Shown one piece after another: positions 8,722-30,886 of a DNA stretch of 64,000 nt. Below the pieces are notes generated by a model. The model had not been told where the DNA came from, searched no databases, and was given only the letters and a program-made list of their open reading frames with translations. This DNA comes from Candidatus Aenigmatarchaeota archaeon (lineage in GTDB: Archaea > Aenigmatarchaeota > Aenigmatarchaeia > GW2011-AR5). The stretch covers positions 59,171-123,170 of the forward strand of contig JACPRW010000001.1 in assembly GCA_016193585.1 (NCBI GenBank), given 5' to 3'. The position numbers and the translations under genes were made by a program. Within the stretch, counting starts at the first letter, position 1. Each line of letters opens with the position of its first letter.

Positions 8722-8771
8722 ATCGGGTCTTTGATGAGAAACAATTTAAGATTATACGGCATCCTACTGGT

Positions 8772-11784: not shown

Positions 11785-11959
11785 GAAATCTTAAATTGTT
11801 TACAACAACAGTGCATTTGGAATCTATTTATTCGATGCATCATAATTAAGCGCCTTGACCGCCTTTGGCACCGAAGGCCGTGTACATGAAGACAAAGTTC
11901 TCGGAACCTCACCGTTTCATGCATGCTACCTTTAAAAATCTTTCCGCGTATATCGCGGC

Positions 11960-12663
11960 ATGCCCTACCGTAATAACAATTACCGGGACAACAGGCTCGT
12001 TGACAGGATTGATGCTGCAGTGCTGCGCCTTCATGAAAACATTGCCCGGTACTGGCAGAATACAACCTACCGGAGCAAGGACGTTCTCGCAAAGGGCCTG
12101 AATGCGACGTCTCTCGCATGCTGCACGGTCAATATCGGCTCCATACCGCTCACGAAGAATTACGAGGATCTCATTTTTTCAATACCGCTGGGAGCAGCCC
12201 AGGCGCGCAGGCTTGTCAGCCGCGGTCGGCAGAAAACGACGTTAGAGGCTGATGCCGAAAGAATCAGAAGAGACGTATATGATGAGCTGTACGATACAAA
12301 AATACCAAGGCTTGTCGTATTGACAGGCGGGCTTTACGCATTGGGGGGGGGGGGGGGGGGGGAATTTCATATGTCGTCGACGGTATGATCAACGGCAAGC
12401 CGGATGCCATTGCAATCGGGGCAGGGGATTTCATACCCCTTGGCATCGGGATTCTCTCTGCGATGTCTGCAGGGTATATAGATCGCGTGGATATCGGCGA
12501 TCCGCCAAAACGTCCGGAAAGAAAAAGCATCAGGGAGTGGCTACAAGAGTATGCTAGGAATGCGCTTCCTTCTCTTCCCTGTTTACCAAATCCCTTTCCC
12601 AAGCCGTCTTTCGGGACGAACGCGTCTTTGCTGACCGAGGAACTGTATCGAATGTATAGATAA
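11960..12663 (+). pseudogene. hypothetical gene split by a G20 homopolymer (ORFs 11960-12388 and 12385-12663 join with +1 G)
   Basis: Both halves look protein-like (…RLVVLTGGLYALGGGGGG / …VDGMINGKPDAIAIGAGDFIPLGIG…). The frame change coincides exactly with the poly-G run. Confidence 0.4.
12343..12362. repeat. G20 homopolymer tract
   Basis: 20 consecutive G read directly from the sequence. Confidence 0.95.
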
Positions 12664-12826
12664 CTGCGTAGTTTATGTGACGTATTATTAGCAGTTATCT
12701 ATATGCAAACTGCGTTGTATGGTGAATTGCACTGGTTATGTCCTGATATTATTTGCAATTCACCTATAGAAAATTGCGCGTTAATACGACATAACAGAAA
12801 TTTTTATTTACTGGTTTCACTATAAA
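12655..12826. repeat. cluster of four TATAG-terminated hairpin elements (F2, F3-fragment, F5, F4-partial, F1-half)
   Basis: tatagataactgcgtagtttatgtgacgtattattagcagttatctata, then tgcaaactgcgttgta, then ggtgaattgca...tgcaattcacc, then aaaattgcgcgttaatacgacataa. The element supplies the stop codon (TAA 12661-12663) of the upstream ORF. Confidence 0.8.
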
Positions 12827-12849
12827 AGCTTTGCAGTTCTATCCTAACC

Positions 12850-14121: not shown

Positions 14122-14360
14122 ATAATTGCGCAGCTTATGTCGTATTAACGCGCAATTTTCTATAGGTGAATTGCAAATAATATCAGGACATATAGTGAAC
14201 CAAGTAAATAATCAGGTATTATATCTTGGTTCACTTACACCCAAAAAGCAAAGCTTTTTGGTGCACCGGAAAACTTTGTTTTCCGCGTGTAGCGGACAAC
14301 AAAAGTATTATGTCGGTATTCTTTTGTTGGTCCACTATAACCAGTGCAATTCACCATATA
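14117..14360. repeat. hairpin-element cluster: F4, then F5 split by a nested 150-bp element
   Basis: F5 appears intact at 41585-41632 and 55822-55870. Here it is interrupted after ...caggaca by an insert with TIRs TATAGTGAACCAAG / CTTGGTCCACTATA. Confidence 0.8.
14191..14340. mobile_element. about 150-bp MITE-like element nested in an F5 hairpin (TIR TATAGTGRACCAA, TA/ATA target duplication, three internal hairpins)
   Basis: A second copy lies at 57646-57793 in opposite orientation (roughly 95% identity by eye). The F5 halves on either side reconstitute the intact element. Confidence 0.7.
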
Positions 14361-14397
14361 ATCGTACCTTTAAAAACCTGACCCATCTATAACGTAT

Positions 14398-15405
14398 ATG
14401 GCAGCAAAGGATTACAAAATCGCCACACTGGGAAGCCACACGGCGCTGCAGATTCTCAAGGGCGCCAGGGACGAGGGCTTCGAAACGATCGCCGTATGCA
14501 CCCCCCAAATGGCACCGGTATACAAAAATTTCCGCGCTGCGGACAAATTTATCGAGATTTCCTCGGTGAAGGACTTCTTCTCCGTCGAGGAGCAGCTCAT
14601 CAGGGAGAACGCCATCCTTATTCCACATGCCTCGCTCATCACGTACCTTAATCTTGACGCCATAGAACGCATGCGCGTCATGTACTACGGGAACAAAAAA
14701 ATATTGCGGTGGGAGTCGGACCGGCTGCTCGAGCGGAAGCTGCTGCAGAACGCGGGGCTGAAGCTGCCGCGCATCTTCGACTCGCCTGCCGGCATCGACC
14801 GGCCGGTCATCGTCAAGTTCTACGGCGCCAAGGGCGGCAAAGGCTATTTCGTCGTGAAGAATGAAAAGGAATTCGAGGAGAAAATGAAGCAGGAAACAAC
14901 CGGCGAGCAGTATATCATACAGGAGTACATCGTCGGCGTGCCGCTCTATGCCCATTACTTCTACTCGCGGATGAGCAGCGAACTGGAAATCATGGGCTTC
15001 GACAAGCGCTACGAATCGAACGTCGACTCCATCGGCAGGATAGCAGCGAAGGACCAGATGAACCTTAACCTTGAAACGTCGTACAACATCGTGGGCAACA
15101 TTCCGGTGGTGGTCAGGGAGTCGCTGCTGCCGCAGATTTTCTCCATGGGAACTGAGACCGTGAAAGCAGCGGAGGACGCCGGCGGCCTGTTCGGCCCTTT
15201 CTGCCTCGAGATGATCATCACGCCGCAGCTCGATTTCTACGTGTTCGAGCTTTCTGCGCGCATCGTCGCCGGCACCAATCCCTATATCGCCCATTCTCCG
15301 TACACCTACGTGCGCTACAACGAGCCGATGAGCACCGGCAGGCGCATCGCACGGGAAATCAGGGAAGCGATAGCAGCAGACAGGCTGGACGAGATTCTTG
15401 GGTAG
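14398..15405 (+). CDS. purP: 5-formaminoimidazole-4-carboxamide ribonucleotide synthetase (PurP family, ATP-grasp)
   Basis: MAAKDYKIATLGSHTALQILKGARDEGFETIAVC... is the archaeal PurP signature. Confidence 0.8.
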   Translation: MAAKDYKIATLGSHTALQILKGARDEGFETIAVCTPQMAPVYKNFRAADKFIEISSVKDFFSVEEQLIRENAILIPHASLITYLNLDAIERMRVMYYGNKKILRWESDRLLERKLLQNAGLKLPRIFDSPAGIDRPVIVKFYGAKGGKGYFVVKNEKEFEEKMKQETTGEQYIIQEYIVGVPLYAHYFYSRMSSELEIMGFDKRYESNVDSIGRIAAKDQMNLNLETSYNIVGNIPVVVRESLLPQIFSMGTETVKAAEDAGGLFGPFCLEMIITPQLDFYVFELSARIVAGTNPYIAHSPYTYVRYNEPMSTGRRIAREIREAIAADRLDEILG

Positions 15406-15409
15406 TGCT

Positions 15410-16510
15410 ATGATGAACAAAGCCGCTGGGGACGCCATCGTCAGCAAGTACAGCAGGAAGGCAATAACCATTGCAACGATCGGTTCCCACTCGGCGCTCG
15501 ACGTGTGCCGCGGCGCAAAAGATGAAGGGTTGCAGACCGTTGTCGTCTGCCAGAAAGGCAGGGAACAAACATACACGAAGCACTATAAGGTCGTAGTCGA
15601 CCACCCGCTGCTTGTCGACAAGTTCAGCGATGTCGCCAGCCCAACTGTGGTGGCGCAGCTGCAAAAGCTGAACGCGGTTTTTATCCCGAACCGCTCATTC
15701 GAAGTGTACGTGGGCGACTACAGCAGGATCGAAGCGATGGAAATCCCCTTCTTCGGCTCGCGCAGGCTCCTGCGTTTCGAGGAGCGGAACGAAAGCCCGA
15801 ACCAGTACACGCTCATGGAAAAGGCGGGCATCAGATTCCCGAAGCGTTTCGCATCGTCTGATGTTATAGATCGCCTCGTTATCGTCAAAGCAGCAGAGAG
15901 CGAGCGGAATTTCCAGCGCGAGTTCTTCTTTGCTTCATCGCCTGTAGATTTTGAGCGGAAAGCAAGGCAACTTATCGATAGGGGACTTGTTCATGGCAAG
16001 CAGCTCGACAGCGCTGTTATTGAAGAATTTGTTATCGGCGCACACATCAATTTTAATTTCTTCTACTCACCGCTCAGGAGGCGGCTGGAACTCATGGGCA
16101 CTGATTTCAGGCGGCAGACCAACCTTGATGGCTTGCTCAGGATTCCGGCGAAAGAACAGTCAGAATTTACCGTCAATCCAAGCCTCAAAGAAGCAGGCCA
16201 TGTCGCCGCGACCGTGCTCGAGAGCATGCTCGAGAAGGCATTCGGGCTGGGCGAAGCGTTTGTCGATGCGTGCCAACCCTATGGCGGCATCGTCGGCCCG
16301 TTTGCACTGCAGTCAATCATTACGCCCGGCCCGCCGAAAGAAGACATCGTCGTCTATGACGTCAGCCTGCGTATCCCCGGCTCGCCGGGCACGATGTTCA
16401 CACCCTATTCCTACTATCTACACGGCAAGCCGCTGAGCGTCGGCCGACGCATCGCCATGGAAGTGCGGGAAGCCGCGGAAACCGGGCAGCTGGAGAAGGT
16501 GGTGACGTAG
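15410..16510 (+). CDS. purP: PurP-family ATP-grasp paralogue
   Basis: KAITIATIGSHSALDVCRGAKDEGLQTVVVC... is the same family. The start is ATG 15410, or the track's GTG at 15398. Confidence 0.75.
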   Translation: MMNKAAGDAIVSKYSRKAITIATIGSHSALDVCRGAKDEGLQTVVVCQKGREQTYTKHYKVVVDHPLLVDKFSDVASPTVVAQLQKLNAVFIPNRSFEVYVGDYSRIEAMEIPFFGSRRLLRFEERNESPNQYTLMEKAGIRFPKRFASSDVIDRLVIVKAAESERNFQREFFFASSPVDFERKARQLIDRGLVHGKQLDSAVIEEFVIGAHINFNFFYSPLRRRLELMGTDFRRQTNLDGLLRIPAKEQSEFTVNPSLKEAGHVAATVLESMLEKAFGLGEAFVDACQPYGGIVGPFALQSIITPGPPKEDIVVYDVSLRIPGSPGTMFTPYSYYLHGKPLSVGRRIAMEVREAAETGQLEKVVT

Positions 16511-16618
16511 GGATTCTTTGATACATCCCTAGTAGACATAACATCTCGCAGCAGCACACAAGACGAACAAAAGTAGGCATAAGCGCTAGTTAGGCGAAAT
16601 TTATGGAGGAAGTAGAAA

Positions 16619-17353
16619 ATGGATATAAATCCTGAGAAATTCCATAGATCTATAAGTAAAGAGTTGAAGGTAATTCAGGATCGAGTTAGGAATCTTATGG
16701 GTAGTGCACATTGGGGAGAAGAAGGGAGGTATAAGGAAGCCGTATTAAGGAGCATTATAAGAAGATTCTTGCCCAAAAATGTAAGTATAGGCACAGGATT
16801 TATTTTAAAAAAAGAGGGCGACGAGATTAAAATATCAAATCAAATAGATATTATCATCTATGACAATACGTATCCAGTGCTGTTTGCAGAAGGCGATTTT
16901 TTAATAACTACACCAGCAAATGTAAAAGGAATAATAGAGGTCAAGACCAAGTTAAATTCTTCAGATGTAATGGATGTGGTTTCTAAAGCTACAAATAATG
17001 GGAAAGTAGTTGATAATGAGATATTTAGTGGAGTATTTGTTTATAACGAAGGAAATATAGTTAACAACAGCAACATAAGTGATAACCTTAAAAGTGCTTT
17101 AAAAGAGAGTAAAGGCGTTGTGAATCATATTTGTTTAGGGGAAGACATTTTCATTAAATTTTGGCCAAGGAATCCACAAAGTAACTTCCCGAATAAATAC
17201 AGTATCTACAGAATAAAAGACCTCTCCTTTTCTTATTTTATTTCTAACCTTGCTGAACAAACATCTGAGAGTAAGCTAAAAGAAAGATGGTGGTTTTTAT
17301 ATCCCATCGAAAAAGGCAAGGAGGAATATAAAATTGAGGATATTGATGTTTAA
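16619..17353 (+). CDS. PD-(D/E)xK nuclease-fold protein, possible defense/abortive-infection component
   Basis: 244 aa with SNQIDIIIYD ... GIIEVKTKL (D...ExK). The N-terminal region is helical. The gene is AT-rich with a GGAGG SD. Confidence 0.5.
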   Translation: MDINPEKFHRSISKELKVIQDRVRNLMGSAHWGEEGRYKEAVLRSIIRRFLPKNVSIGTGFILKKEGDEIKISNQIDIIIYDNTYPVLFAEGDFLITTPANVKGIIEVKTKLNSSDVMDVVSKATNNGKVVDNEIFSGVFVYNEGNIVNNSNISDNLKSALKESKGVVNHICLGEDIFIKFWPRNPQSNFPNKYSIYRIKDLSFSYFISNLAEQTSESKLKERWWFLYPIEKGKEEYKIEDIDV

Positions 17354-17559
17354 ACTTCGCCTAACATAGCATAAAAGGTTCGTGCCTCACAGCGCTCACC
17401 CAAATTTTTGCTTCGCAAAAACTTCTTTTATGCTGGAAACGTTCAACGAAATTCCGAACATTATTTCAGGCCGCCGACACGATAGCTCTTCGCTTCCAAG
17501 CCTCTGGAACGACAAGGCGAATTTATAAGGATTATCGGAAGAATTATTTATGTGATGTT

Positions 17560-18333
17560 GTGACAAGGAAGAAGGTATCCAAGAAAGATGTACATAAATT
17601 AAAAAAAGAGCCAAAATTTTCTCAAGAGATAAAAACTTCAGTAGTAATGCCTTTCAAATGTAAATTTTGTGGCAATCTTTTTGATATTGAGCACAGACTT
17701 CCAGAAAACCATACTTGTGAAGGTCTTTCTCAATGGAAAGAAAAACATTTGAAAGAATTTCATGAAGGTAAAAGTTCTATCGCATATGAAAACACGCTGG
17801 AACCAAAACATGAAGATTCAGGCTATAAAGATTCTATGAGAAACGCCCTTCGATGTGACTCAAAACAATTTTTCAAAGGAATACCAGAAAAATTCAATAA
17901 ACAGGCAATAAGATTGAATATTCATCGACTAATTCAAAAAAATATGAATGATATCGGCATATGGCTCATAGGCTTATTTATTATCTTTACAGCTTTCAAT
18001 CAGATACTAAAATACTCTATACTTGAAAGTATTTCATGGATTTTTGTTTACGTTGCAGAAATTATTTTTATATATAAGTTGATTAAGCGTGTTGACAAAA
18101 TAGAAGTAAATTCAGATTTGAGTATTTGGGGTTTAAAAATATTATCATTCATCTTTATCCTTATTGGAGTGTATATATTCTTATTCGGGTCTTTGGCATT
18201 AGCCACCGTCTATAGCCTTTATGTTCTCGGGCTTCTTGGTATAATAGCGCTAGGATTCTTTTCAATTGGCGCTTTTCTGATTTTCAAATTCAAACGAAGA
18301 AGTGGGAGCATTGTATGGGTCGGAAGAGCGTAG
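17560..18333 (+). CDS. Zn-finger (AN1-like CxxC...HxxxxxHxC) protein with two C-terminal TM helices
   Basis: [20 protein letters not shown] motif and a K-rich N-terminus, followed by two long hydrophobic helices. The start is uncertain (alternative Met at 17647). Confidence 0.45.
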
Positions 18334-18426
18334 AAGAAATTATTGTAATGAGAAAGTCGTTATAAAACTTATTTTGGCTAGCCTTAAATACTTATATAAA
18401 ATCATATATACATAAACTTATATAGA

Positions 18427-18699
18427 GTGGTAACCATGCAAAAAAGAGAAATTATACACTATCCTAACCTTAGCACAATGCTTGAAGTAGAGAAGGTCCT
18501 GAAAGAAGCAGACGGACCTATATCCAAGGAAGAACTGAAAAGGAGGCTTCCGACAAAGATTATGCACCAGACACTTAACCTTATTTTGGCATACATGGAA
18601 AACAGGGGGCTGATTTTATCAGGCCCGAAAGGCATACTCTGGACATACAATCCCAGCCCGAAACTGCAGAAAGCCATAGAAAAAGGCATTGAGATATGA
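18427..18699 (+). CDS. small winged-helix-like protein (putative antitoxin/regulator)
   Basis: 90 aa. Its stop overlaps the next gene's start (ATGA). Confidence 0.4.
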   Translation: MVTMQKREIIHYPNLSTMLEVEKVLKEADGPISKEELKRRLPTKIMHQTLNLILAYMENRGLILSGPKGILWTYNPSPKLQKAIEKGIEI

Positions 18700-19067
18700 G
18701 TAGAAATATCAACGTCATACTTAGCGAAGAAGCTACCAAGCAATATGAAGAACTGAACAGGATTGTTGGTGATGAAATAAAGAAAGGCATAACGAATTCT
18801 ATTCATCAGCAACTACTCAAATCCATAAAACAGAAATCTGAGCTTCTGAAAATCAATCCTCAGGCTGGAATACACATATCGAAAAAGCTTATACCGAAAA
18901 TCTATATAGACAAATACGATGTCGATAATCTGTGGAAAATAGATTTGTCTGGTTACTGGAGAATGACGTATACGTTGCGGACGACAGAAATAGAAATAAC
19001 GAACTTCGTTCTAGATATAGTAGATCACGTAACGTACGACAAAATACTTGGATACAAGAAAAAATAA
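18696..19067 (+). CDS. RelE/ParE-like toxin
   Basis: N-terminal ...SEEATKQYEEL...IKKGI...LKINP and C-terminal GYWRMTYTL...ITNFVLDIVDHVTY, matching the RelE/ParE fold pattern. Confidence 0.5.
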   Translation: MSRNINVILSEEATKQYEELNRIVGDEIKKGITNSIHQQLLKSIKQKSELLKINPQAGIHISKKLIPKIYIDKYDVDNLWKIDLSGYWRMTYTLRTTEIEITNFVLDIVDHVTYDKILGYKKK

Positions 19068-19466
19068 ACATCGCCTTGTAGCCAAAACCATTCTGAACCT
19101 GAAGAGCCACTTTCAGGCCGTCGGCGGTCCTGTTTTCAGTATTGTGCTGAATGCCTTGCATTCGCACATCTTCGGAGAAATATAATTTCTCCGAGATTCA
19201 GAAAATCTTCGATTTTCGAGAAATTTGCACGAACCTATGGTTCGGTGCAGTATTGTCGGAACTCTTCGCTTTCCTGCGGAAAGCTCGCTTTTCTTTCAGA
19301 AAAGTCGCTGAACAGCGATTAGAAGATCCGCTTCTGCGAAGCTCCATCCAAATGGCGATTATATAAAAAGAAATAATCGCCACTTCTTCTAATCGCATAC
19401 GTTATGCTCAATTCGTGGGCTCGCCGGTTAAAAAGTTTATTAAGCCAACTTAACTATTGATTAATT

Positions 19467-22159
19467 ATGGTAGACATTTTATATATTTTTTCAGGTTCAC
19501 CGTTGCTCTACATTCTCATATTAACATTAATTGCATTAGGTACATTCCTAATCTGGAAGTCATTCAAAACAAAATATAAATTCATTTTTTTAGGGGTTTT
19601 AGGCTTGGGAATAATCACTGTTCTCCTATTTTCTTTTATTAATACTCAACAAGGATCACCTGAACCGGATGCATCTGGAAAATCAGGCTACACATTGACT
19701 CTAAAAGAAGTGTGGGGTTCGAAGAGATGGATAAAGACCTTCGAAAGGCCCGGTAGTGATTATCCATTTGCAGTTCTGCAAACCTCTGACGGCGGGTATG
19801 TGGTTAGCGGGAGAACAAATAACGGCACGAAAGATTGCTATGGCGGGACCCCTATGATTTTAACATTCCTTTTCAAGACAGACGCGGATGGAAACAAAGT
19901 CTGGGAAAAGTTTCATTACGCTGGCAGAATAGTTTCAATCCAGCAGACTTCTGACGGAGGGCTGGTGGCTACAGGATCAATAGCTGCCACTGACACAGGA
20001 ATTGATGTTTACCTTGTAAAAACAGACGCGAAAGGCAGTATTACTTGGGAGAAGAGCTATGGTGAGAGTGATCCCGAGGGAGGATTTTCCGTCCAGCAGA
20101 CTTCTGACGGAGGGTATATCATTGCGGGGGGGGGACAGGTAGACGCTTGGGAAATCAAGGGATTTACTTGCTTAAAGTTGACAGCAACGGAAACAAATTG
20201 TGGAGCAGGATATTCGCCAAAGATTTAAAGACGGATGAGGAACCGCAACTGGTCCAGCAGGCTGCTGATGGAGGCTATATAGTTGTTGGGTGGAGGAAAT
20301 CGCAAGGAATGCCCAGCATAAAAGAAGACCCTAATGACCCATACATTGATGACGACGTCTATTTGCTAAGGACTGATTCATTAGGGAATAAGATTTGGGA
20401 GAAGACGATTGACGCATTTGGGAAGCGTGCAGACGAGAGGCTTGTGCATGATGCCTTGCAAACACCTGACGGAGGTTATGTAATTGTTGGAGGCTCAGCA
20501 CCCATTGTAAGATCAAATGGCGCACTACAAAGTTCGAGCCCCTATGTCTATTTGCTCAAGATTGATTCTGACGGGAACAAAACATGGACGAAGGATTATG
20601 GTATGGGAATTGGTCATTTAGTTCAGCTAACGTCCGACGGCGGTTACATAATCACTGGAGAGGTAATAGACAACGTGGGTCCAAATTACCTTGTGAAGAT
20701 AGGAACGGACAGTGACGGGAATAAGTTGTGGGAGAAACCCATTGAAATACTTAATACATATCAGGGCAAGGATTACCCAAATGTGGTTAAGCCAACCTTT
20801 GACAGCGGCTACATAGTCCTTGGAACCAGAGAATATGGCGACCTTATGGGATATGCCGGCATGCTGGAATCTGATACCCTGCTCATGAAGATAGAAGAAA
20901 CAGACACACTAAGATTGCCGGATTATGAGCGGGTACCGCCGCGTGAAACGAAGTTGCCCACCCAAGTTGAGCTACTGACTCCGACGGGAAAAGGATGGAT
21001 GAAGACAGTTGGAGGGAGTTTAGGCTCAAAGGCGCGAGCCGTGCAGAAGACATCTGACGGAGGCTATATAGTTGCAGGTTGGACTCATCGTAGTGTGACA
21101 GTACCTTATGGATTGAACGACACGACAGTCCTGACACAAAGGGAAGCATATATTGTTAAGACAGATGGAAATGGAAATAAAGTTTGGGAGAAGAGCTTTG
21201 GAGGAGATGGGTTTGAAGACGGGTTTTCAGTACAGCAAACCCCTGACAGCGGGTATATGGTTCTTGGAATCAAGGAGGCATATGCCTATCTGATAAAAAC
21301 AGATGCTTATGGAAACACGCAGTGGAATAAGACACTTGGTGAAAATTATGGTGATGTGGGTTTTTCACTCCTGCAGGCTTCTGACAGTGGATACATAATT
21401 GTTGGGATTACACAAGGCCATGGTGCGACCCCGTGTAACGCAAAAGAACCTGAGCGAGGCGCATCAGCTGATGTCTATATCATAAAGACTGATGCTGACG
21501 GAAACAAATTGTGGGAAAAAGTAATTGGCGGAACGCATATGGATATAGGATATTTTGTGCAGAAGACTTCTGACGGCAATTATATAATAACTGGAATGAC
21601 AGCTTCATTTAGTGAAAAAGGAGTCGAGGATGTTTACCTGCTTAAAATAGACAGCCATGGCAACAAATTGTGGGAAAAGGCAATTGGGGGGGACAAAAGC
21701 GAGATGGGCTATTCAGTACAACAAACTACTGACGGCGGTTATGTAATTGTTGGGCAAACAGTTTGGTCAATCAAAGGAGCAGATATGGGTGAAGGGGGTT
21801 ATGCTAGCCAGTCAGATATCTATTTAATAAAAACAGATACATACGGGAACAAAATCTGGGAAAAGACGTTTGGGGGGAGTTCGATGGATAGGGGATTTTC
21901 AGTGCAGCAGACTTCCGACGGCGGGTACATCATTACCGGAGACACAGACGGGCATCTTTACCTCTTCAAAACAGATGCAGACGGGAATAAAGTCTGGGAA
22001 AAGGCATTCAAAAGAGACGAGACCAAGCCATTCACGGGACGGTCTGTCAAGCAGACTACTGACGGCGGGTACATGGTTGTTGCAAATACGTTTTACACGT
22101 CAACACCTGCCTATCAGCCTATAATACTCATAAAGACAGACGCAAACGGGGATGTGTGA
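19467..22159 (+). pseudogene. secreted multi-repeat beta-propeller-like surface protein, frameshifted at a G9 tract
   Basis: It has an N-terminal TM/signal segment and 15 or more roughly 55-aa repeats (QQTSDGGYII.G....D.YL.KTD..GNK.WEK..GG). ORF 19467-20228 (frame 0) and ORF 20147-22159 (frame 2) share the same repeat and join if the G9 run at 20126-20134 gains one G. Confidence 0.6.
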
Positions 22160-23087
22160 AATTGTGAGAAAAACAATTTTTATAATCCCTTTGCTGATTT
22201 TGATTGTTTTTGTCAGTGGCTGCGTCGGGCAGGGACCTGGCATGAATCCGACTGTAATAACCGGCAAGACAACCATTGAGAAAAGCGGTTTGTACGTCTT
22301 GAACAGCGACATCTCCTGCACCGCCGAAGGTGAAATGGACGTATGCATCGATATACAGAGGCATGACGCTGTGCTTGATTGCCAGGGTCACAGCATAACT
22401 CTGGCGAATCAACAGGCCCGCCGCGGCCCTGCCAGTACCGGGATATACATAGCTGGCAGCGGCGTGGAGGACGTGACTGCCAGGAATACCGTCAGGAATT
22501 GCAGGATTGAGAACTTTGCATTCGGCATATTCCTCAAGGCCAGTTCCAACAACTTCATCAACAACACCATCAGCAACAATGGCATCGGAATCTACTACGA
22601 CGACTTTTCCTCGTACAACATTTTCATAAACAACACGGTGAGTAATAACAACAATAGAGGCATCTACCTGTTCATGCGCTCGTCCAACAACAATTTTACA
22701 GGCAACATTGTAAGAAACAATAGCATATACGGCATCATTATCACCTGCGCGGCACACCACAACACCTTTTCCAACAACGTGGTTGAAGGCAACGGATACG
22801 GCAGCACGAGTGACGAGAACGGCGGAATCTACATCCTCAACTCATACGCCAACGTCTTTTCAGGCAACGGGATATGCAACAACTCGAAAACCATTAAATG
22901 CAAGTTCGATGCCACAATGGAAGGCATAAGTGATATCTGCAGGCCGCAAGTCCTTCCAGACACCATTCCAATTGACAGGGATGCACAGGAAGCCGGAAAC
23001 CTCATTGACGGCGGGGGAAACACCTGTGGTCCGAGCTCCATGAGCTGCGACGGCACCACCATAAGCTGCATCAGGGGTTGCCCATGA
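22152..23087 (+). CDS. right-handed parallel beta-helix (NosD/pectin-lyase-like) lipoprotein
   Basis: Lipobox FVSGC, then N/G-rich approximately 22-aa repeats (NNTISNNGIGIYY, NNTVSNNNNRGIYL, ...). Confidence 0.65.
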   Translation: MCEIVRKTIFIIPLLILIVFVSGCVGQGPGMNPTVITGKTTIEKSGLYVLNSDISCTAEGEMDVCIDIQRHDAVLDCQGHSITLANQQARRGPASTGIYIAGSGVEDVTARNTVRNCRIENFAFGIFLKASSNNFINNTISNNGIGIYYDDFSSYNIFINNTVSNNNNRGIYLFMRSSNNNFTGNIVRNNSIYGIIITCAAHHNTFSNNVVEGNGYGSTSDENGGIYILNSYANVFSGNGICNNSKTIKCKFDATMEGISDICRPQVLPDTIPIDRDAQEAGNLIDGGGNTCGPSSMSCDGTTISCIRGCP

Positions 23088-24604
23088 AAAATCTGGCTAT
23101 TTTCTTTTTATTGTTTATTTCAATAGCACTTATCAGCGGCTGTGTCCAACAACCGTCTAAACTAAAGGATTCAGAAACACCGGGCTATGCATCATCAGGC
23201 ACAACCGGCAAATATCCGGAACAAAATCCAGATTGTGCAAACTCAGGTGTGAAAACCTGGGCAAAAGTGTTTGGCGGGCCTGGATTTGATTATGCAACTT
23301 CACTCCAGCAAACTCCTGATGGAGGGTATGTGGTTACTGGACTCCTTAATTCCGGACCGACGGACTCGACCGGCGAAAAGCAGTATGATGTCCTTTTGTT
23401 CAAGGTTGATATGGACGGGAACAAAGTATGGGAGAAGTCGTACGGGGGGAATGAGAACGATTTCGCATTCTCACTGCAACAGACTGCTGACGGTGGATAC
23501 ATTATCGGAGGAGAAACGCGTTCCTTTGAAGATAAAGGTGCCAATGCCTATCTTATAAAAACCGATGCCGATGGCAATCTGCAATGGAACAGGACATTCG
23601 ATATGTGCGGAGGAAACGAGTCTGACAGGGTACTCTCAGTGAGGCAGACTTCTGATGGTGGGTACATAAGTGCAGGCGTTACATTTTCCTGCAGCCAAAA
23701 GCTCTGGGGGGAACAGCTCCCATGGGACGACTCCTTCCTTCTTAAAACAGATGCAAACGGTAATATGTTGTGGGAGCGCATTTTTGGATGGAAGGAGAAC
23801 ATAGACCAGGCGCTTTCGGTCCAGCAGACCTCTGACGGAGGATTCGTGGCCATCGGATACATACACTATTATGACCCAAACGGACCTATCTATATCTATG
23901 GACGAGACATTTACTTGGTAAAAACTGATAAAGATGGAAACATACTGTGGAACAAAACATTCGGAATCGGTAACAAGACATCTCTTGGAAACGGATTGAA
24001 TAATGCGGAAGTGTTACAGCAGACTTCCGATGGAGGATATGTGGTTGCCGGACAAGGAGCCGACAGACGACTATATCTGCTGAAAGCTGATGCGAACGGC
24101 AATAAAGTCTGGGAAAAATCAATTGGAGATCTGAATTTGCATAGCAGGGGATACTCTGTAAAGGAAACAACTGACGGCGGCTACTTCATTATAGGGGCAC
24201 GATGCATTCCAGACTATGAACCGAGAACCATAATTGTCGACAGTAATGTTATTCTTGAGCATCCATGTGAGTTCTACTTCCTGAAAACTGATGCGAACGG
24301 AAACATAGTATCGGAGATGTCCGGCGGGCGCACTTTCAATGGCGTGCTATGGCCAGGCCAGCAGACTCCTGACGGGGGATACATAATTGTTGAAACTGTA
24401 TTCCCAAGAGTGAGCGCGACCCAGTATGCAAAGACGACTGACATCCTCATGATGAAGCTGAATGAGAATGGAGTTGTATGTAACCTTACTTATGGCCAAC
24501 CCTGCACACTGGTGCCTGAGCCAGAGTGGATAAACAACCCCGCATGCAAAAATCTTATTTATGATGAAGAGTACATTCACAATCCCTATCTCCCAGAGCG
24601 ATAA
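23078..24604 (+). CDS. beta-propeller repeat lipoprotein (same repeat family as 19467-22159)
   Basis: Lipobox LISGC, then repeated QQTSDGGY...YLLK.DANGNKVWEK units. Confidence 0.65.
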   Translation: MPMKNLAIFFLLFISIALISGCVQQPSKLKDSETPGYASSGTTGKYPEQNPDCANSGVKTWAKVFGGPGFDYATSLQQTPDGGYVVTGLLNSGPTDSTGEKQYDVLLFKVDMDGNKVWEKSYGGNENDFAFSLQQTADGGYIIGGETRSFEDKGANAYLIKTDADGNLQWNRTFDMCGGNESDRVLSVRQTSDGGYISAGVTFSCSQKLWGEQLPWDDSFLLKTDANGNMLWERIFGWKENIDQALSVQQTSDGGFVAIGYIHYYDPNGPIYIYGRDIYLVKTDKDGNILWNKTFGIGNKTSLGNGLNNAEVLQQTSDGGYVVAGQGADRRLYLLKADANGNKVWEKSIGDLNLHSRGYSVKETTDGGYFIIGARCIPDYEPRTIIVDSNVILEHPCEFYFLKTDANGNIVSEMSGGRTFNGVLWPGQQTPDGGYIIVETVFPRVSATQYAKTTDILMMKLNENGVVCNLTYGQPCTLVPEPEWINNPACKNLIYDEEYIHNPYLPER

Positions 24605-24668
24605 GACTCCGGGTAAATTCCATAATGGTCGATTAAAATGAGAAACGCGAAGGAAATGAGTAAAGGTA

Positions 24669-25235
24669 TTGTTAGCTTTGATTGTCTTTGTCAGCGGCTG
24701 CGTCCAAGAGGAAAAACAGGTTGAAAAGCAAGAAGAAAAACCAAAAATAGAGGAACGCTATTTTCCTGGCTGGGCACCAGCTCCGCTTGGATTGGCAATT
24801 ACCCCAGATGGAAAAACAGCCTACATTCCCTTCGGACTTGACGATGCGTTACTGGTAGTGAACTTATCAACATTTGCTGTCATCGATTCGATAGATGTAT
24901 CTGAAGCCGGCAACATGCTTCTTTTAACTGCTACAGTCTTGGGTCCAGACGGGAAAAAGCTTTACGTTTCCAACTATGGAACCAAGAACGTGATGGTGGT
25001 AGATACAGAAAACAAACGTGTTGAGAAGGTGCTTCCGTTAAATCCACTCCATGCAGCCGCCATCGCAATATCACGAGATGGAAGCAAAGCCTACGCGCCC
25101 TCAAAAGATGGGGGACTGTACGTAATAAATACTTTAGACAATTCGTATAACCGCATTTTTATACCCGGAGTTATTTTTGGCCCGGTAGTGCCTTCTTCCA
25201 GCAATCCAGAGTTAGTGTATTGGCCGACTTCATGA
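24669..25235 (+). CDS. YVTN-family beta-propeller lipoprotein
   Basis: TTG start with lipobox IVFVSGC, then ITPDGKTAYIP.../GPDGKKLYVSNYGTKNVMVVD.../SRDGSKAYAP YVTN-type blades. Confidence 0.55.
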   Translation: MLALIVFVSGCVQEEKQVEKQEEKPKIEERYFPGWAPAPLGLAITPDGKTAYIPFGLDDALLVVNLSTFAVIDSIDVSEAGNMLLLTATVLGPDGKKLYVSNYGTKNVMVVDTENKRVEKVLPLNPLHAAAIAISRDGSKAYAPSKDGGLYVINTLDNSYNRIFIPGVIFGPVVPSSSNPELVYWPTS

Positions 25236-25259
25236 AGTCCCGATACGTTGTATGCATTG

Positions 25260-26048
25260 TCACGCTACCTTCTCCCGCACATACCCCACCGCATTCCTGA
25301 AAATCTGCATGCCTCCGGCTTCCTTCGCCTCGCCGCGTGTCCAGCGCGGGTGGTTGGTAACGTCGTTAAAAGCTTCAGGGTGCGGCATCATGCCGAAGAC
25401 ACGGCCGGTTTCGTCGCAGATGCCGGCGATGCCATCAGTTGCTCCATTGGGATTCCAGGGATAGCCGGCTTCGGTTCCGTCAGGGCTGATGTACTGCAGC
25501 GCCACATGGCCGTTGTCATGCAGCCGCCGGCGCGTTGCGTTGTCAAGGGGAATCAGATTCCCCTCGCCGTGCCTGACCACCTGATACAGGCGGTCGATGC
25601 CTTTCGTGAACACGCACGGCGATTTCTTATTTGCTTTCAGGTGCACCCAGCGGTTTTCAAAGCGGCCAGACGCATTGGCCGCCAGCGTCACCGTCTGCGT
25701 GAAATAATCTTTGCCGAATGCCGGCAGCAGCCCAAGCTTTGCGATAATCTGAAACCCGTTGCATGCGCCGAATATGAGCTTGCCGTCCGCAATGAACTGC
25801 TCCAGATCAGGGCGCATTGTGTGCTTGAGTTTGATGGCAAATACCTTGCCGCCGGCGATGTCGTCCCCGAACGCAAAGCCGCCGGGTATGGCGAGAATAT
25901 GGAACGAATCGAGACTGATGTTCTTTTTCAGCAGGTCGCTGAAGTGCGCTATAGTGCTCTCCGCTCCTGCGTTCCTGAAGGAATGCGCCATTTCGTACTC
26001 GGCATTGAGGCCGTAGCCGGTGACGACAAGTACTTTGACGTTTTTCAT
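25260..26048 (-). CDS. purQ: FGAM synthase glutamine amidotransferase subunit
   Basis: MKNVKVLVVTGYGLNAEYEMA... class-I GATase. The ATG lies 2 nt after the purL stop (taactATG). Confidence 0.85.
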   Translation of the reverse strand: MKNVKVLVVTGYGLNAEYEMAHSFRNAGAESTIAHFSDLLKKNISLDSFHILAIPGGFAFGDDIAGGKVFAIKLKHTMRPDLEQFIADGKLIFGACNGFQIIAKLGLLPAFGKDYFTQTVTLAANASGRFENRWVHLKANKKSPCVFTKGIDRLYQVVRHGEGNLIPLDNATRRRLHDNGHVALQYISPDGTEAGYPWNPNGATDGIAGICDETGRVFGMMPHPEAFNDVTNHPRWTRGEAKEAGGMQIFRNAVGYVREKVA

Positions 26049-26050
26049 AG

Positions 26051-28957
26051 TTACCATCTCAGCGTTTGCTGCCACGACTCCTTCAGCTCGTTGACAGATG
26101 CACTGATAACTTCGTTTCCGTCAAGACCGCATACGGAAAACAAGCCATCAGGAGTCACGGTACCGATGCACGCCACAACACTGCCAGCTATGGTATGCTC
26201 GAATGCAACCCTGCTTTCAGGTAGGATGGTGACTATGAATCTCGATTGCGTCTCCGAGAAGAGCACGTAGTCATTGCGCTGTTCGCCGTTGTAGGGAACT
26301 TTTCTGAGGTCTATGCTCATCCCTAAATCACCTGCAAACGCCGTTTCAGCGAGCGCCACGCCAAGGCCGCCGTCAGAGCAGTCGTGACACGAAGCGACAA
26401 GCCCTGCTGTCATGGCTTTGTGCAAGCCTTTGTAGAGATTTTTTGCCGCAGGTGCGCTTACCCGTGGTACCTTATTGCCAACAAGGCTATGGTGCGCGAA
26501 ATATTCCGAGCCTCCGAGCTCGTCCTTTGTCTCGCCCAGAATGTACACAAGGTCGCCTGGATGCTTCGCGTCCATGGTGACCGCCGTGCGCACGTCAGCA
26601 ATCTTGCCGACGACGCTGAACAGCAGCGTGGGTGGTATGGAAATCCTTGTTTCGCCCCTGAAGTCGTTCTTCATGCTGTCCTTGCCTGAAATGCACGGAA
26701 CGCCGAAAGCAGTGGTGTAGTCGTACAGCGCCTTGTTCGCCCTCACGAGCTGCCCAAGCTTGTGCGCATCCTGTGTCGGGTCGGGCCAGCAGAAGTTGTC
26801 CAGCGCAGCAAGACAGTCAGGGTCAGCACCGACAGCAACTGCATTGCGTATCGCTTCGTCAAGCGCGCATGCGGCCATGTGGTACGCGTCGATGTCCCCA
26901 TACTTCGGGCAGATGCCGTGGCTGATGGCAATGCCTTCGTTCGATTCGAGCAGCGGCCGGACGACTGCTGCATCGCTTGGCCCGTCGTTGTGCGCGCCGG
27001 TGAGCGGCTTCACGACGCTGCCTCCCTGAACCTCGTGGTCGTACTGGCGTATGACGTATTCCTTCGAGCAGATGTTGAGACGGGAAAGTAATGCCATTAA
27101 TGCGTCCTTCAGGTCAGGCTCGGCAAAGCTGGCATCTGGCCATTGTTTCTCTTCCCACCGGGCGCTGAGCTTCATTCGCGGTGCCCCGTCGTGGAGGAAT
27201 TCCATGTCGAGGTACGCGACCGTTGCGCCGTTGTGCAGTGCATGGAATTTTCCTGTGCCGGTGAATGTGCCGATGGCCGTCGCCTCGACGCTGCGCAGCT
27301 TCGCCAGTTCCATGAATTCCTTTTCCTTGTCCCTGCTCACTGCAAGCACCATGCGCTCCTGCGATTCCGAGAGCAGTATCTCCCATGGCGCGAGTCCCGG
27401 GTACTTGAGCGGGCATTTGTCCAGGTGAATTTCGCAGCCGCCGCTCACGCGCGCGGTCTCGCCGACTGCTGATGACAAGCCGCCGCCACCGACGTCGGTG
27501 ATGAACCGGTACAGGCCCTTGTCCCGCGCCTCGAGCAGAAAATCGTACATGATTTTCTGGGTTATGGGATCGCCGAGCTGCACGGCGCTCACCGGCGAGC
27601 TTTCGCTTATTTCTGCGGACGAAAAGGTGGCGCCGTGGATGCCATCCTTTCCTGTCCTACCGCCTGCGACAACAATGAGGTCGCCGGGAACGACCGTCTT
27701 CGCATGAGACGGTTTCCCGTTGATGGCGTGCGGCATGATGCCGCAGGTGCCGCAGTACACCAGCGGCCTGCCGAGGAAACGGTCGTCGAAAACGATGCTG
27801 CCGTTCACCGTCGGAATGCCGAGCTTGTTGCCGCCGTGCTCGACGCCGCGCCGCACGCCCTCGAAAATGCGCTTCGGGTGCAGGACTCCTTTGGGCAGCG
27901 GCTTGTCGTAGTAGGGGCTTGCGAAGCAAAAAACATCGGTGTTGCACACAAGCCGTGCGCCAAGCCCGGCGCCGATGACGTCGCGGTTGACGCCGACGAT
28001 GCCGGTGAGCGCCCCGCCGTACGGCTCGAGCGCGGAGGGCGCGTTGTGCGTTTCCACCTTCATCGCAATGTTCCAGTTATCATTAAAGCGTATGATGCCG
28101 GCATTGTCCGAAAAGACCGAGACGAGCCACGGCTTCGCAATTTCCTTTGTCGATTTTTTGACGTAGGTGTCGAACAGGGAATCTATCCGCTCTTCGTTTC
28201 CGTCTTCCCTGTAGGTGATTGCTGCGTTGAAAATCTTGTGCTTGCAGTGCTCGCTCCACGTCTGCGCGAGCGCCTCGAGCTCGACGTCGGTAGGGTCCGC
28301 AAGTCCCAGAGCTTCACGCTGTGCACGCACGTCAGGGTTCGAAAAGTGGCGCCTGATGGCCTGCATTTCCCCAAGGGTGAGTGACAGGAGCTTCGATGAA
28401 CTGAGCTGCACCAGCTCATTGTCCGGCAGGTCGACGCTGACCGGTTCTGCATGCGGCGTGCGGTAGAGCTCGACTTTTGGCATCATTGTTGTAGTCGCGT
28501 CGCTTGGGCTCCTGACTTCCCAGCGCTCGATGAGCTCGTTTGCGAGCAGCTTGGTCGCGATGCGTTCCGCGTCGCCTCTGCTCAACGTCCCGCTGACAGC
28601 ATACTGGCGTGATGTATACACATCAGCAGCAATGCCGAGCATGTCGGTTATCGCTTCTTTTGATGTCTTCCCGACGTTGTCGGTGACGCCAGGCTTGAAG
28701 CCGACTTCAATGAGCCAGTTATAGCCACCAAGAACTGGCGCATCGATGGCGAACGTCTGGGTGACAGCATCGGCAAAGAGCTGCGCCGCAAGCGTGGTGA
28801 GCTGCTCATAGCGGAGGTTCGCATCAACAGTATAGACATCAGCAGTTCGCACCGAACCGACATGAAGACTGAGGTCGGCTTCTATTCGCTTGGCGACGGC
28901 ATTGCCGAGCGCGTCCGGGATTGCCGGCTTGCATGCCACTTCGATGCGGTGCGCCAT
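26051..28957 (-). CDS. purL: FGAM synthase PurL with two N-terminal PurS-like domains (PurS-PurL fusion)
   Basis: 968 aa. The N-terminal roughly 170 aa contains two PurS-like units (KPAIPDALGNAVAKRIE... and KPGVTDNVGKTSKEAITDMLG...LANELIERWEV), followed by the AIRS/AIRS_C duplicated FGAM synthetase body. Confidence 0.85.
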   Translation of the reverse strand: MAHRIEVACKPAIPDALGNAVAKRIEADLSLHVGSVRTADVYTVDANLRYEQLTTLAAQLFADAVTQTFAIDAPVLGGYNWLIEVGFKPGVTDNVGKTSKEAITDMLGIAADVYTSRQYAVSGTLSRGDAERIATKLLANELIERWEVRSPSDATTTMMPKVELYRTPHAEPVSVDLPDNELVQLSSSKLLSLTLGEMQAIRRHFSNPDVRAQREALGLADPTDVELEALAQTWSEHCKHKIFNAAITYREDGNEERIDSLFDTYVKKSTKEIAKPWLVSVFSDNAGIIRFNDNWNIAMKVETHNAPSALEPYGGALTGIVGVNRDVIGAGLGARLVCNTDVFCFASPYYDKPLPKGVLHPKRIFEGVRRGVEHGGNKLGIPTVNGSIVFDDRFLGRPLVYCGTCGIMPHAINGKPSHAKTVVPGDLIVVAGGRTGKDGIHGATFSSAEISESSPVSAVQLGDPITQKIMYDFLLEARDKGLYRFITDVGGGGLSSAVGETARVSGGCEIHLDKCPLKYPGLAPWEILLSESQERMVLAVSRDKEKEFMELAKLRSVEATAIGTFTGTGKFHALHNGATVAYLDMEFLHDGAPRMKLSARWEEKQWPDASFAEPDLKDALMALLSRLNICSKEYVIRQYDHEVQGGSVVKPLTGAHNDGPSDAAVVRPLLESNEGIAISHGICPKYGDIDAYHMAACALDEAIRNAVAVGADPDCLAALDNFCWPDPTQDAHKLGQLVRANKALYDYTTAFGVPCISGKDSMKNDFRGETRISIPPTLLFSVVGKIADVRTAVTMDAKHPGDLVYILGETKDELGGSEYFAHHSLVGNKVPRVSAPAAKNLYKGLHKAMTAGLVASCHDCSDGGLGVALAETAFAGDLGMSIDLRKVPYNGEQRNDYVLFSETQSRFIVTILPESRVAFEHTIAGSVVACIGTVTPDGLFSVCGLDGNEVISASVNELKESWQQTLRW

Positions 28958-28960
28958 CGT

Positions 28961-29989
28961 TTACACCAGGACCATATCCTTCTTTTCATGACTGATGATA
29001 ATATGCTGTTTTCCGGTAACCGATCCTATGATTTCGGCGTGCTTGAGCAGGCCGAGAGCAGTGTCGCTGTCTTCTTGCCTGACGATTACCGCAAATCCCC
29101 ATCCCATGTTGAACGTCGAGAACATTTCCTTTGCCGTGATGTTGCCGGCTTCCTGAATAACATGGAATATTGATTGCGGATGGAAATTAGAAAATGCGAA
29201 GCCTTTGCCCGGAGCCTGCATCAGTTTCCCAAATTTGAGGTAGGCATCACCGGTGATGTTGACTGCGGCAAGGACAGTAACTTCTTTCATGAGCTTCATG
29301 AAATCCTGGACATAAATGGCCGTCGGCTCAAGCGCCTCGAAGACGAGCTCCCTGTCCATGCCATCGACGGTGCTATGCGCCTCGTACGCGCCTCCCCATT
29401 CCCTGAACAGCACTTTTCTCGCGAGCGACATGCCGTTTGCGTGAAGGCCGGAACTTCGCAAACCGATGACAGCGTCCCCCTGCTGCAGCGCAGTCCCGTA
29501 AATTATCGACTCTTTTTGCACTTCTCCCACGCAGTCGCAGCCGATGTCATAGGCTGCCGCGAGCAGCTCAGGAACGTCGGCAATCTCCCCGCCTACCATC
29601 GGGCACCGTGCGGCAGCGGCGCCGTCTGCAAGTCCCTTCTGCAGCTTCCCGATAAGCCCTGCGTCAGATTTTCTGACGCTCAGCGTATTAGTTAATGCAA
29701 TCGGCTCGGCGCCGCTGCGGATGCAGTCGTTGACGACCATAGCAACCGCGTCGATGCCAATGGTGTCGTGCTTGCCGGCGAGCTGAGCAAGCATCGCTTT
29801 CGTGCCGACGGTGTCAGCTGTTTTTACCTGATATGCCGTGGCGGTGGGATAGAGCGTGTTGAACGGTGTGGAAACAAGCGGCCCGTATTTGCTGTAGGAA
29901 TGCGTGCCGTCGAACGCAAGGAGCTTTTTCGCTGCCGCGCGCGCCTCGCGGTCGACCCCTGCGTCCTTGTACGTTGGCATAATAACCAT
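28961..29989 (-). CDS. purM: Phosphoribosylformylglycinamidine cyclo-ligase (AIR synthetase)
   Basis: (MVI)MPTYKDAGVD...AIRS family. The start is ATG 29989 or 29980. Confidence 0.88.
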   Translation of the reverse strand: MVIMPTYKDAGVDREARAAAKKLLAFDGTHSYSKYGPLVSTPFNTLYPTATAYQVKTADTVGTKAMLAQLAGKHDTIGIDAVAMVVNDCIRSGAEPIALTNTLSVRKSDAGLIGKLQKGLADGAAAARCPMVGGEIADVPELLAAAYDIGCDCVGEVQKESIIYGTALQQGDAVIGLRSSGLHANGMSLARKVLFREWGGAYEAHSTVDGMDRELVFEALEPTAIYVQDFMKLMKEVTVLAAVNITGDAYLKFGKLMQAPGKGFAFSNFHPQSIFHVIQEAGNITAKEMFSTFNMGWGFAVIVRQEDSDTALGLLKHAEIIGSVTGKQHIIISHEKKDMVLV

Positions 29990-30037
29990 TCTGATGAATC
30001 CTTTAATCTTTTTATTGGGAAGCTGCCATGTGGTAGC

Positions 30038-30886
30038 ATGCAGGAAGCTCTGAAACCGTTTCTCAGGGACTTCAAGCGATGCCTGCACGAATCAAGATTC
30101 AGGAACGACATCGTTTCAGTAGTGCTCCTCGGCTCAGGTGCGCGCGGGGACTGGATAAGGGGCGAAAGCGATATCGACTTCATCGTCGTCGTGAAAGACA
30201 GGAGGATGAAGCGTCCTGTTGCCGCATTTCTGTGGAAACTTGTCAAGAAGCTTGACAGGAAGCACAAGCTCCGGCTGAACCTCAGTGATAAGACCTATAA
30301 CAGCATTCTTTTAAATGCAATCATGAAAGTCGAGGCGTTCTTCCTGCAGCGGGTGCCGCTGTACGTGCTCGCTGAAGAGGAGTTCGACCTGGTGAACAGG
30401 AAAATTCGCGAGCCGCGCATATGGTTCATCGCCACAGTTATAGGCTCGCTGCCGCAGTTCCTTCTCAACCTGAAGCATACCGGGAAGACGATGTACGGGA
30501 AGGATTTGCTGAAGGATATCAGGGTTTCGTTCGGGTTGCTTGATGAGCTGAAAATCATCCTAATTCCCTACTATTATCTCGGACTTGCAGCCTTGCTGCT
30601 GCCCTTTTCGCCAAAGCAGGCAGCGCAGCACGCGATTAAGGCATGCCTTCTCGAGACAGACGATGAACTGCTTCTGCTCCACAGGAAGCTGGGAAGCTAC
30701 CGGAGAGACGAGCAGCTGTACGAACGCCTCTTCCGCGGAAGCCCGACAATACAGCATATCCGGAAGTGCCTGCGCTATCGCAGGATGCTCAGCCGCAAAA
30801 TTATCGGCTACGAGGAAGCGACGGAGTTCGTGCTCGATTCCGCCAGGTTTGTCGCACGAAGCCGTATCATGGTCTGCAGGCCATAG
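30038..30886 (+). CDS. minimal nucleotidyltransferase (MNT) domain protein with a C-terminal HEPN-like Rx6H motif
   Basis: LLGSGARGDWIRGESDIDFIVVV is the pol-beta NTase motif. The C-terminal RGSPTIQH fits the HEPN Rx4-6H motif. Confidence 0.6.
   Translation: MQEALKPFLRDFKRCLHESRFRNDIVSVVLLGSGARGDWIRGESDIDFIVVVKDRRMKRPVAAFLWKLVKKLDRKHKLRLNLSDKTYNSILLNAIMKVEAFFLQRVPLYVLAEEEFDLVNRKIREPRIWFIATVIGSLPQFLLNLKHTGKTMYGKDLLKDIRVSFGLLDELKIILIPYYYLGLAALLLPFSPKQAAQHAIKACLLETDDELLLLHRKLGSYRRDEQLYERLFRGSPTIQHIRKCLRYRRMLSRKIIGYEEATEFVLDSARFVARSRIMVCRP

Follow-up and report, generated by a model that had tools for sequence, protein, structure and literature searches.

Positions 19467 to 25235 of a 64,000-nucleotide (nt) stretch of contig JACPRW010000001.1 from a Candidatus Aenigmatarchaeota archaeon (the whole 64-kb stretch is called the window, and all positions refer to it) carry four co-directional genes on the + strand, designated g1 to g4. 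With moderate confidence, we interpret g1, g2, g3 and a decayed g4 as one small operon of membrane-anchored surface proteins. Judged from sequence, the best-supported reading of the locus is that it encodes membrane-tethered extracellular binding modules, a reading that we regard as probable but far from secure. An earlier prediction made from the DNA letters alone (the original prediction) had placed four open reading frames (ORFs) here, and same-strand ORFs are found at all four places. The genes and their parts are as follows, with lengths in amino acids (aa).

19467 to 22159, + strand: g1, predicted membrane-anchored double seven-bladed beta-propeller, 897 aa when a poly-G tract is read as ten G (G10); two ORFs in the window.
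19467 to 20228 (253 aa) and 20147 to 22159 (670 aa), + strand: the two g1 ORFs of the window, in different frames.
19467 to 19640, + strand: predicted N-terminal membrane anchor of g1, from a Kyte-Doolittle scan and the translation.
19713 to 20929, + strand: g1 propeller 1, blades 1 to 7, aa 83 to 488 of the intact protein.
20126 to 20134, + strand: poly-G tract in g1, nine G (G9) in the window, encoding the A-G-G-G-T turn of blade 3.
20984 to 22153, + strand: g1 propeller 2, blades 8 to 14, aa 507 to 896.
22152 to 23087, + strand: g2, short right-handed parallel beta-helix with a predicted lipobox anchor and a Cys-rich C-terminal region, 311 aa from ATG 22152.
22221 to 22223, + strand: lipobox Cys of g2 (C24).
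23084 to 24604, + strand: g3, single seven-bladed beta-propeller with a predicted lipobox anchor, 506 aa.
23141 to 23143, + strand: lipobox Cys of g3 (C20).
~23255 to 24478, + strand: g3 propeller.
24669 to 25235, + strand: g4, 188 aa, fragment of a YVTN-type propeller (about three blades) with a VSGC motif; probable gene remnant.

The reading frames of g1 and g2 overlap by 8 nt (or are separated by a 4-nt gap if g2 begins at GTG 22164), the g2 stop and the g3 start at ATG 23084 share an ATGA overlap, g3 and g4 are 64 nt apart, and 24 nt lie between the g4 stop and the end of purQ. In the deposited metagenome-assembled genome (MAG), locus tags HYY37_00380 to HYY37_00420 span the locus, and the accession numbering implies two coding sequences for g1. 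No paralogues of g1 to g4 were found elsewhere in the window. The MAG probably originates from a Northern California groundwater study that was sequenced on HiSeq 4000 or NovaSeq 6000 instruments (PMC7906910).

The propellers of g1 and g3 are built from a repeat with the consensus vqQTsDGGYii.G.t...d.YL.KTDa.GNk.WeK..G. Motif parsing and alignment recovered 21 units with a median length of 55 aa (14 in intact g1 and seven in g3), in agreement with the ~55-aa QQTSDGGY...YL.KTD..GNK.WEK repeat of the original prediction. Recurrence of this motif is far beyond chance, and at the DNA level the repeat forms 17-18-copy families with 60-80% identity, indicating that the units are old and diverged. 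A profile of g3 homologues matches g1 at aa 83-488 and then at aa 507-896 as two overlapping matches, from which it follows that g1 comprises two seven-bladed propellers behind an N-terminal membrane anchor. The AlphaFold2 model of g3, made with 56 homologues (mean predicted local distance difference test score (pLDDT) 78; predicted template modelling score (pTM) 0.78), depicts a signal helix, a disordered, low-confidence tether at aa 22-50 and seven four-stranded blades. Structure modelling, which had been proposed as a check, yielded this seven-bladed propeller for g3 and a right-handed beta-helix for g2.

The repeat had been described as unusual, a description that does not hold. A search with g3 returned at least 7,987 proteins at E <=0.001, a lower bound taken among 8,000 scored candidates, many of which have source names such as “delta-60 repeat protein” (the name that JGI gives to many of the homologues), “PQQ-binding-like beta-propeller”, “PKD domain-containing” or “T9SS type A sorting domain-containing”. 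Among the 56 aligned homologues, which are 32-85% identical to g3, 37 match DUF5122 (PF17164) at E <=0.001 (best 6.7e-22) and 24 carry a C-terminal sorting domain of the type IX secretion system (T9SS); further homologues, from bacteria, contain PKD or FlgD-Ig domains. The g1/g3 repeat belongs, as a divergent representative, to the very large class of DUF5122/delta-60-type propellers, and CylK is a solved relative. The 670-aa part of g1 also passes the Pfam model PQQ_2 (PF13360; 36.4 bits against a gathering threshold of 27.6, E=5.9e-9), to which g3 is unmatched, and we take this match to indicate fold-class membership only. Like the bacterial DUF5122/delta-60 propellers (TIGR02608), g1 and g3 have a repeat of ~52-55 aa, a predicted extracellular setting and a two-part motif consisting of a (Q)xDGxxxxxG strand followed by an xxKxDxxGxxxW/F strand. 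They differ in scoring below the curated thresholds (14.5 bits against a TIGR02608 cut-off of 76.5 for the 253-aa part of g1) and in the position of the anchor, which is N-terminal in g1 and g3 (an archaeal lipobox or transmembrane segment), whereas the bacterial anchor is a C-terminal T9SS tail. The LipL53 family of Leptospira (NF047494) likewise consists of lipoproteins with a related propeller repeat, but LipL53 is bacterial with Lgt-type lipidation, and the scores of 64 and 60.6 bits obtained here with this SBBP lipoprotein model (E=1e-17 and 1e-16) are far below the family cut-off of 400 bits.

The only solved structure found by sequence was the C-terminal propeller of CylK, a cyanobacterial Friedel-Crafts alkylating enzyme (PDB 7RON and 7FH6), with a profile E-value of 4e-32 over six to seven blades. 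CylK was also the top Foldseek match of the g3 model (E=7e-20, TMq 0.61), and the alignment of the two reveals a common half-repeat, D.[YW]L.K.D..GN..W...G. As CylK holds a Ca2+ ion at every blade junction (PMC8916777), blade-bridging Ca2+ sites are plausible in the g1 and g3 propellers by likeness. Catalysis by CylK requires Arg105 from an N-terminal Ca2+-binding beta-roll domain that sits against the top face of the propeller, with the active site at the domain interface (PMC8916777). The match to CylK is confined to the propeller (chain residues 248-652), and the g3 sequence before blade 1 consists of a signal peptide and a ~35-aa disordered tether with no beta-roll domain. As both g1 and g3 are without this domain, they are not CylK-type enzymes, and a CylK-like enzymatic identity for g3 was ruled out on the absence of the catalytic N-terminal domain. 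In place of that domain, g1 and g3 carry predicted export and anchor signals.

The second module of the locus, g2, matches the Pfam models Beta_helix (1.5e-18) and NosD (3.3e-16), both above curated cut-offs, and its AlphaFold2 model is a short right-handed parallel beta-helix (pLDDT 81), as would be expected for the NosD/pectin-lyase-like beta-helix protein originally predicted. A sequence search of g2 against the PDB gave nothing useful. Its close family comprises seven other proteins with 50-73% identity, of which the two with named sources are from Aenigmatarchaeota MAGs. In the orthologue alignment this family keeps the SGC lipobox and eight or more conserved cysteines, including those of a Cys-rich C-terminal tail, and these cysteines fit with an extracellular, disulfide-bonded protein. 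Because orthologues begin with MRK, the true start of g2 is probably GTG 22164 (MRK). NosD itself, a periplasmic beta-helix protein of the NosDFY ABC complex, shares with g2 the Pfam NosD match and appears among its Foldseek matches (7O0Y and 7OSF), but g2 is much shorter, has a lipobox and lacks nosZ, nosF and nosY neighbours. Identity with NosD was ruled out on score (TIGR04247, 38.7 bits against 300) and on context, the neighbours being propeller and purine genes.

Archaeal lipobox lipoproteins are defined by an N-terminal signal peptide that has an n-region and an h-region and ends in [L/V/I][A/S/T/V/I][G/A/S]C (PMC12462473). The form [VI]SGC is present in g2 (C24; signal ending LILIVFVSGC), g3 (C20; signal ending MKNLAIFFLLFISIALISGC, with ISGC) and g4 (C11; VSGC without an n-region). 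When all ORFs of at least 80 aa in the window were passed through a strict signal-plus-lipobox filter, only g2 and g3 remained. Three lipoboxes had been expected and three are there, although the signal of g4 is defective; the count of four lipoproteins given with them must be lowered to at most three, with g1 held by predicted transmembrane segments. The N-terminus of g1 was correctly seen as a transmembrane or signal segment without a lipobox: it has hydrophobic segments at ~aa 4-30 and 37-58, a loop (KSFKTKYK) between them and no Cys, and by the positive-inside rule the propellers would face outward. The TTG starts assigned to two of the proteins are doubtful, as g3 starts at ATG 23084 in both the NCBI and Logan calls (506 aa) and g2 more likely starts at GTG 22164. 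On other Aenigmatarchaeota contigs, orthologues and genes in their neighbourhood, a Peptidase_S8 (subtilase) gene among them, also carry a motif of the form SGC[VI][GQ]Q, and the g1 counterpart in a relative (36% identical) has a lipobox in place of the transmembrane anchor. Evidence for a surface location consists of the lipobox kept in orthologues, the tether after the g3 Cys, the cysteines of the g2 family and the bacterial homologues with T9SS, PKD or Ig domains. Lipoproteins are predicted to be prevalent in DPANN archaea, and recent work in Haloferax has identified AliA and AliB, the first enzymes for lipidation in archaea (PMC12462473).

The comparison with relatives that had been suggested shows that both the propeller pair and beta-helix/propeller neighbourhoods recur. 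One relative carries a 504-aa g3 orthologue with 63% identity and, as the very next gene, a double propeller of 896 aa that is 36% identical to g1; each of the two has a lipobox, and the genomic context is unrelated. At another locus (L090), a g3 homologue (54%) is followed by two beta-helix genes, and in the Aenigmatarchaeota MAG GCA_043799675.1 (locus L091) two g2 orthologues bracket genes that include two lipobox propeller proteins of a different type. One protein fuses a beta-helix to the same repeat as in g1 and g3, and at a metagenome locus 70 nt separate a propeller region from a beta-helix region. The L091 locus (positions 2454-13400 of its own sequence) contains eight genes for proteins predicted to be exported or membrane-anchored: two g2-like beta-helices, four propeller or unknown proteins, one 258-aa protein and one Peptidase_S8. 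An identical SGCVGQ/SGCIGQ lipobox is present in four of these eight proteins, which suggests a lineage-typical signal and larger surface-protein islands in the phylum. A literature search on DPANN surface propellers found nothing directly relevant.

Gene order and overlaps, domains, folds, conservation of the lipobox, the place of the propellers in a large extracellular family and the return of the same partnership in relatives have been shown, and the following model is built on them. In this groundwater archaeon of the DPANN lineage Aenigmarchaeota, the g1, g2 and g3 proteins would sit on the outward-facing side of the cytoplasmic membrane. Export of g2 and g3 would proceed through a Sec-type signal, followed by tethering via the lipobox Cys in an archaeal lipoprotein pathway of the AliA/AliB type found in Haloferax, and a transmembrane hairpin or a signal anchor at the N-terminus would keep g1 in the membrane. 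The exposed modules would comprise a short beta-helix, its tail rich in disulfides, and three propellers of seven blades each, all from the DUF5122/delta-60/CylK-propeller class. At the surface they would bind an external ligand, either glycan or protein and possibly on a host cell, with the g2 beta-helix acting as a glycan-binding or glycan-processing partner of the propellers. Ligand binding is the most likely role of g1 to g3, and adhesion in an episymbiont is an attractive candidate for the purpose it might serve.

Several points weigh against this model. Propeller and beta-helix folds are functionally promiscuous. Export, lipidation and topology of g1 to g3 are deduced from sequence features and from homologues. 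The Pfam comparison that had been proposed, which g1 passes through PQQ_2, left g3 below every threshold (DUF5122, 17.8 bits against 27). When distant beta-helix loci were collected by a single-protein scan with g2, only one of 43 had an adjacent propeller, so that the link between the two modules is recurrent and not general. Finally, g1 is broken in this assembly and g4 is degenerate, and part of the locus may therefore be decaying.

The alternative that survives best is an extracellular polysaccharide-processing locus, in which the g2 beta-helix would work as a lyase, epimerase or hydrolase, with the propellers as catalytic or substrate-binding partners, in nutrient capture or envelope remodelling instead of adhesion. 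The best Foldseek matches of g2 do point in this direction, as they include phage tailspike depolymerases, the mannuronan epimerases AlgE4, AlgE6 and AlgG, polysaccharide lyases of family PL6 and pectate lyases; the other propeller matches of g3 include a rhamnose-glucuronate lyase, a sialidase and lectins, and at L090 a neighbour of the g3 homologue fuses TatD/amidohydrolase domains to a beta-helix. However, the g2 matches are weak (E ~1e-5, TM-scores of 0.4-0.48, 13-15% identity) and reflect a generic fold, g2 is short with no catalytic motif identified, and the locus has no glycoside hydrolase or transporter genes. We consider this alternative unlikely, and the reading as tethered binding modules is kept.

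The locus is genuine but unremarkable, since its repeat falls in a very large known class and all of its domain types have well-known relatives, and it represents no new kind of system. What is odd about it is accounted for by gene decay in g4 and a homopolymer discrepancy in g1.

The small YVTN protein of the original prediction is recognisable in g4, which scores 39.3 bits with the YVTN repeat model TIGR02276 (cut-off 27.85) and matches, as its best solved relative, the Methanosarcina mazei surface-layer propeller 1L0Q with E=1e-23 over ~120 residues, or about three blades. A complete closed propeller would have about seven blades and ~300 aa, and g4 aligned to about three blades of 1L0Q. 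The truncation had been overlooked: orthologues that are 73-75% identical run at least 100 aa beyond the g4 stop. At the other end, the in-frame starts of g4 leave 7-10 residues before the Cys (C11) and no charged n-region, and the following feature lies directly upstream.

24638 to 24668, + strand: out-of-frame ATG with MRNAKEMSKG before g4; sequence reading, offered as an inference only.

This upstream ATG is in a different frame from g4, with a 1-nt frame change between them, and the stretch is possibly the former n-region of the g4 signal peptide. Altogether, g4 is probably a gene remnant, C-terminally truncated and with a crippled signal peptide. Surface-layer-type proteins of Methanosarcina, reportedly described by Jing et al. 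in 2002 with the structure 1L0Q, are said to be composed of YVTN propeller, PKD and beta-helix domains. The likeness to g1-g4 is that propeller and parallel beta-helix classes are both used on an archaeal surface; the differences are that the domains here reside on separate small predicted lipoproteins and not on one large multidomain protein, that PKD domains are absent, and that g4 keeps only about three blades.

The accessory cell-surface character proposed for the locus holds, its accessory part by the low GC content at third codon positions (GC3) relative to the purine genes, with g2 as an exception. GC3 is 0.28-0.47 across the block from 16.6 to 25.2 kb, except for g2 at 0.65; the values for g1, g3 and g4 are 0.39-0.47, and those of the flanking purine genes are 0.60-0.78. 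Upstream of this island are purF, purA and two purP genes, and downstream are purQ, purL and purM. The island begins ahead of g1 with the following segment.

16619 to 19067, + strand: upstream part of the same low-GC island, given as context only.

Its first gene (16619-17353, + strand, in a block with GC3 of 0.30) encodes a stand-alone DUF6602 protein, a NucC-like PD-(D/E)xK nuclease that matches the PADLOC model PD_DExK at 1.8e-24 and NucC nuclease models at ~1e-13 to 1e-14. Next to it are a gene for a zf-AN1 membrane protein and two small ORFs that overlap each other (18427-18699 and 18696-19067), and together this group may be a defence or toxin-antitoxin module within the island. The purine neighbourhood that the island interrupts extends over 9838-16510 upstream and, on the opposite strand, over 25260-30088 downstream. 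The purL, purQ, purP and purP genes are co-directional neighbours in several distant archaea and bacteria, and the convergent arrangement in the window suggests a rearrangement at the island. Loci anchored on purQ in GTDB were at best only 57-59% identical (Methanosarcinales, Methanoperedens), with a different gene order, and are uninformative on insertion of the island. Within the upstream purine genes, the two arms of a perfect 58-nt inverted repeat (12737-12794 and 14135-14192, 1340 nt apart) lie on either side of purA (12850-14121), as do those of two further inverted repeats of 25-26 nt (12715-12739/14337-14361 and 11399-11424/14191-14216). Logan contigs break at the inverted repeats around purA; the arrangement could mark a segment able to invert, or regulatory DNA of the purine cluster that has been duplicated.

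A continuous ~900-aa ORF had been predicted at 19467-22159. In the window there are instead two ORFs, split where the G9 run at 20126-20134 shifts the g1 frame, a frameshift that had been overlooked. The Logan contig of run SRR12113432 is 99.993% identical to window positions 14331-28264, and the sole difference is one extra G in this run (G10), with which g1 is called as one 897-aa protein. The contig of SRR12113418 likewise has G10, and that of SRR12113425 begins exactly at the tract, with ten G. When the exact 253-aa protein made from the G9 allele was looked up in public assemblies, no other assembly had it on record, and a scan of Joint Genome Institute (JGI) metagenome contigs with the flanking DNA for further poly-G alleles gave no matches. 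A shorter G7 run in g1 (window 21686-21692, encoding IGGD) is the same in all contigs read. Elsewhere in the window, a 20-G run at 12343-12362 splits an apparent single gene into ORFs 11960-12388 (ending VVLTGGLYALGGGGGGEFHMSSTV before its stop) and 12385-12663; this run is probably a poly-G assembly or sequencing artefact of two-colour Illumina chemistry, or else a real frameshift, and it lowers trust in the homopolymer lengths of this contig. The Logan contigs at this 20-G run do not reach across it. Because every other assembly that was read has G10, the G9 product is found nowhere else and the G20 run splits another gene, the most likely cause of the g1 frameshift is an error in assembly or consensus, or else a minor or rare variant, with the gene intact in the population.

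A decaying accessory island would explain the frameshift differently. Here the locus would be a horizontally acquired remnant with no current function, g1 would be a true pseudogene and g4 a fragment, as suggested by the G9 frameshift in the deposited MAG, the truncation and crippled signal of g4, and the atypical GC3. This is quite improbable, given that G10 and an intact g1 are found in every Logan contig read across the tract (three runs, otherwise identical to the window) and that g2 and g3 are intact, with orthologues conserved at 63-87% identity.

It is similarly improbable that g1 is a phase-variable surface protein, toggled OFF and ON between G9 and G10 by slipped-strand mispairing, or, as a variant of this idea, that transcriptional slippage, or else a -1 frameshift on G GGG GGA, restores the reading frame of the G9 allele. 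The tract does sit inside a surface-protein gene and differs in length between the MAG and the other assemblies in a way that toggles the frame, one Logan contig breaks exactly at it, and by sequence reading the G9 run fits the X XXY YYZ slippery pattern. Against this, G9 occurs in one assembly only, and that assembly also has the gene-splitting G20 run, which suggests poly-G artefacts; by our own estimate chance alone would give ~0.5 runs of at least nine G or C in a 64-kb stretch, and a distant g1 orthologue has no such tract. In our judgement it is very improbable that the G9/G10 tract truly works as a slipped-strand switch, or that slippage during transcription or -1 slippage of the ribosome takes place there, turning a large double-propeller surface protein on and off. 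If true, this would amount to phase variation, in an episymbiotic DPANN archaeon, of a protein that is a candidate for host attachment, of which we know of no documented case. The explanation of the frameshift as an error or rare variant is therefore preferred, and the reading of g1 to g3 as tethered surface modules is retained with it.

Annotation should treat g1 as a single gene, noting the homopolymer discrepancy, and should mark g4 as a remnant. Proteins of this kind are now labelled “hypothetical”, and the locus supplies candidates for host-interaction proteins. DPANN archaea are believed to rely on contact with hosts through their surface, and characterisation of the archaeal lipoprotein pathway has only just begun, in a haloarchaeon. 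In this setting, the locus provides a concrete, conserved example of predicted lipobox-anchored surface proteins in Aenigmarchaeota, in which a propeller class exported by the T9SS in bacteria appears to be re-anchored in archaea by a lipobox or a transmembrane segment.

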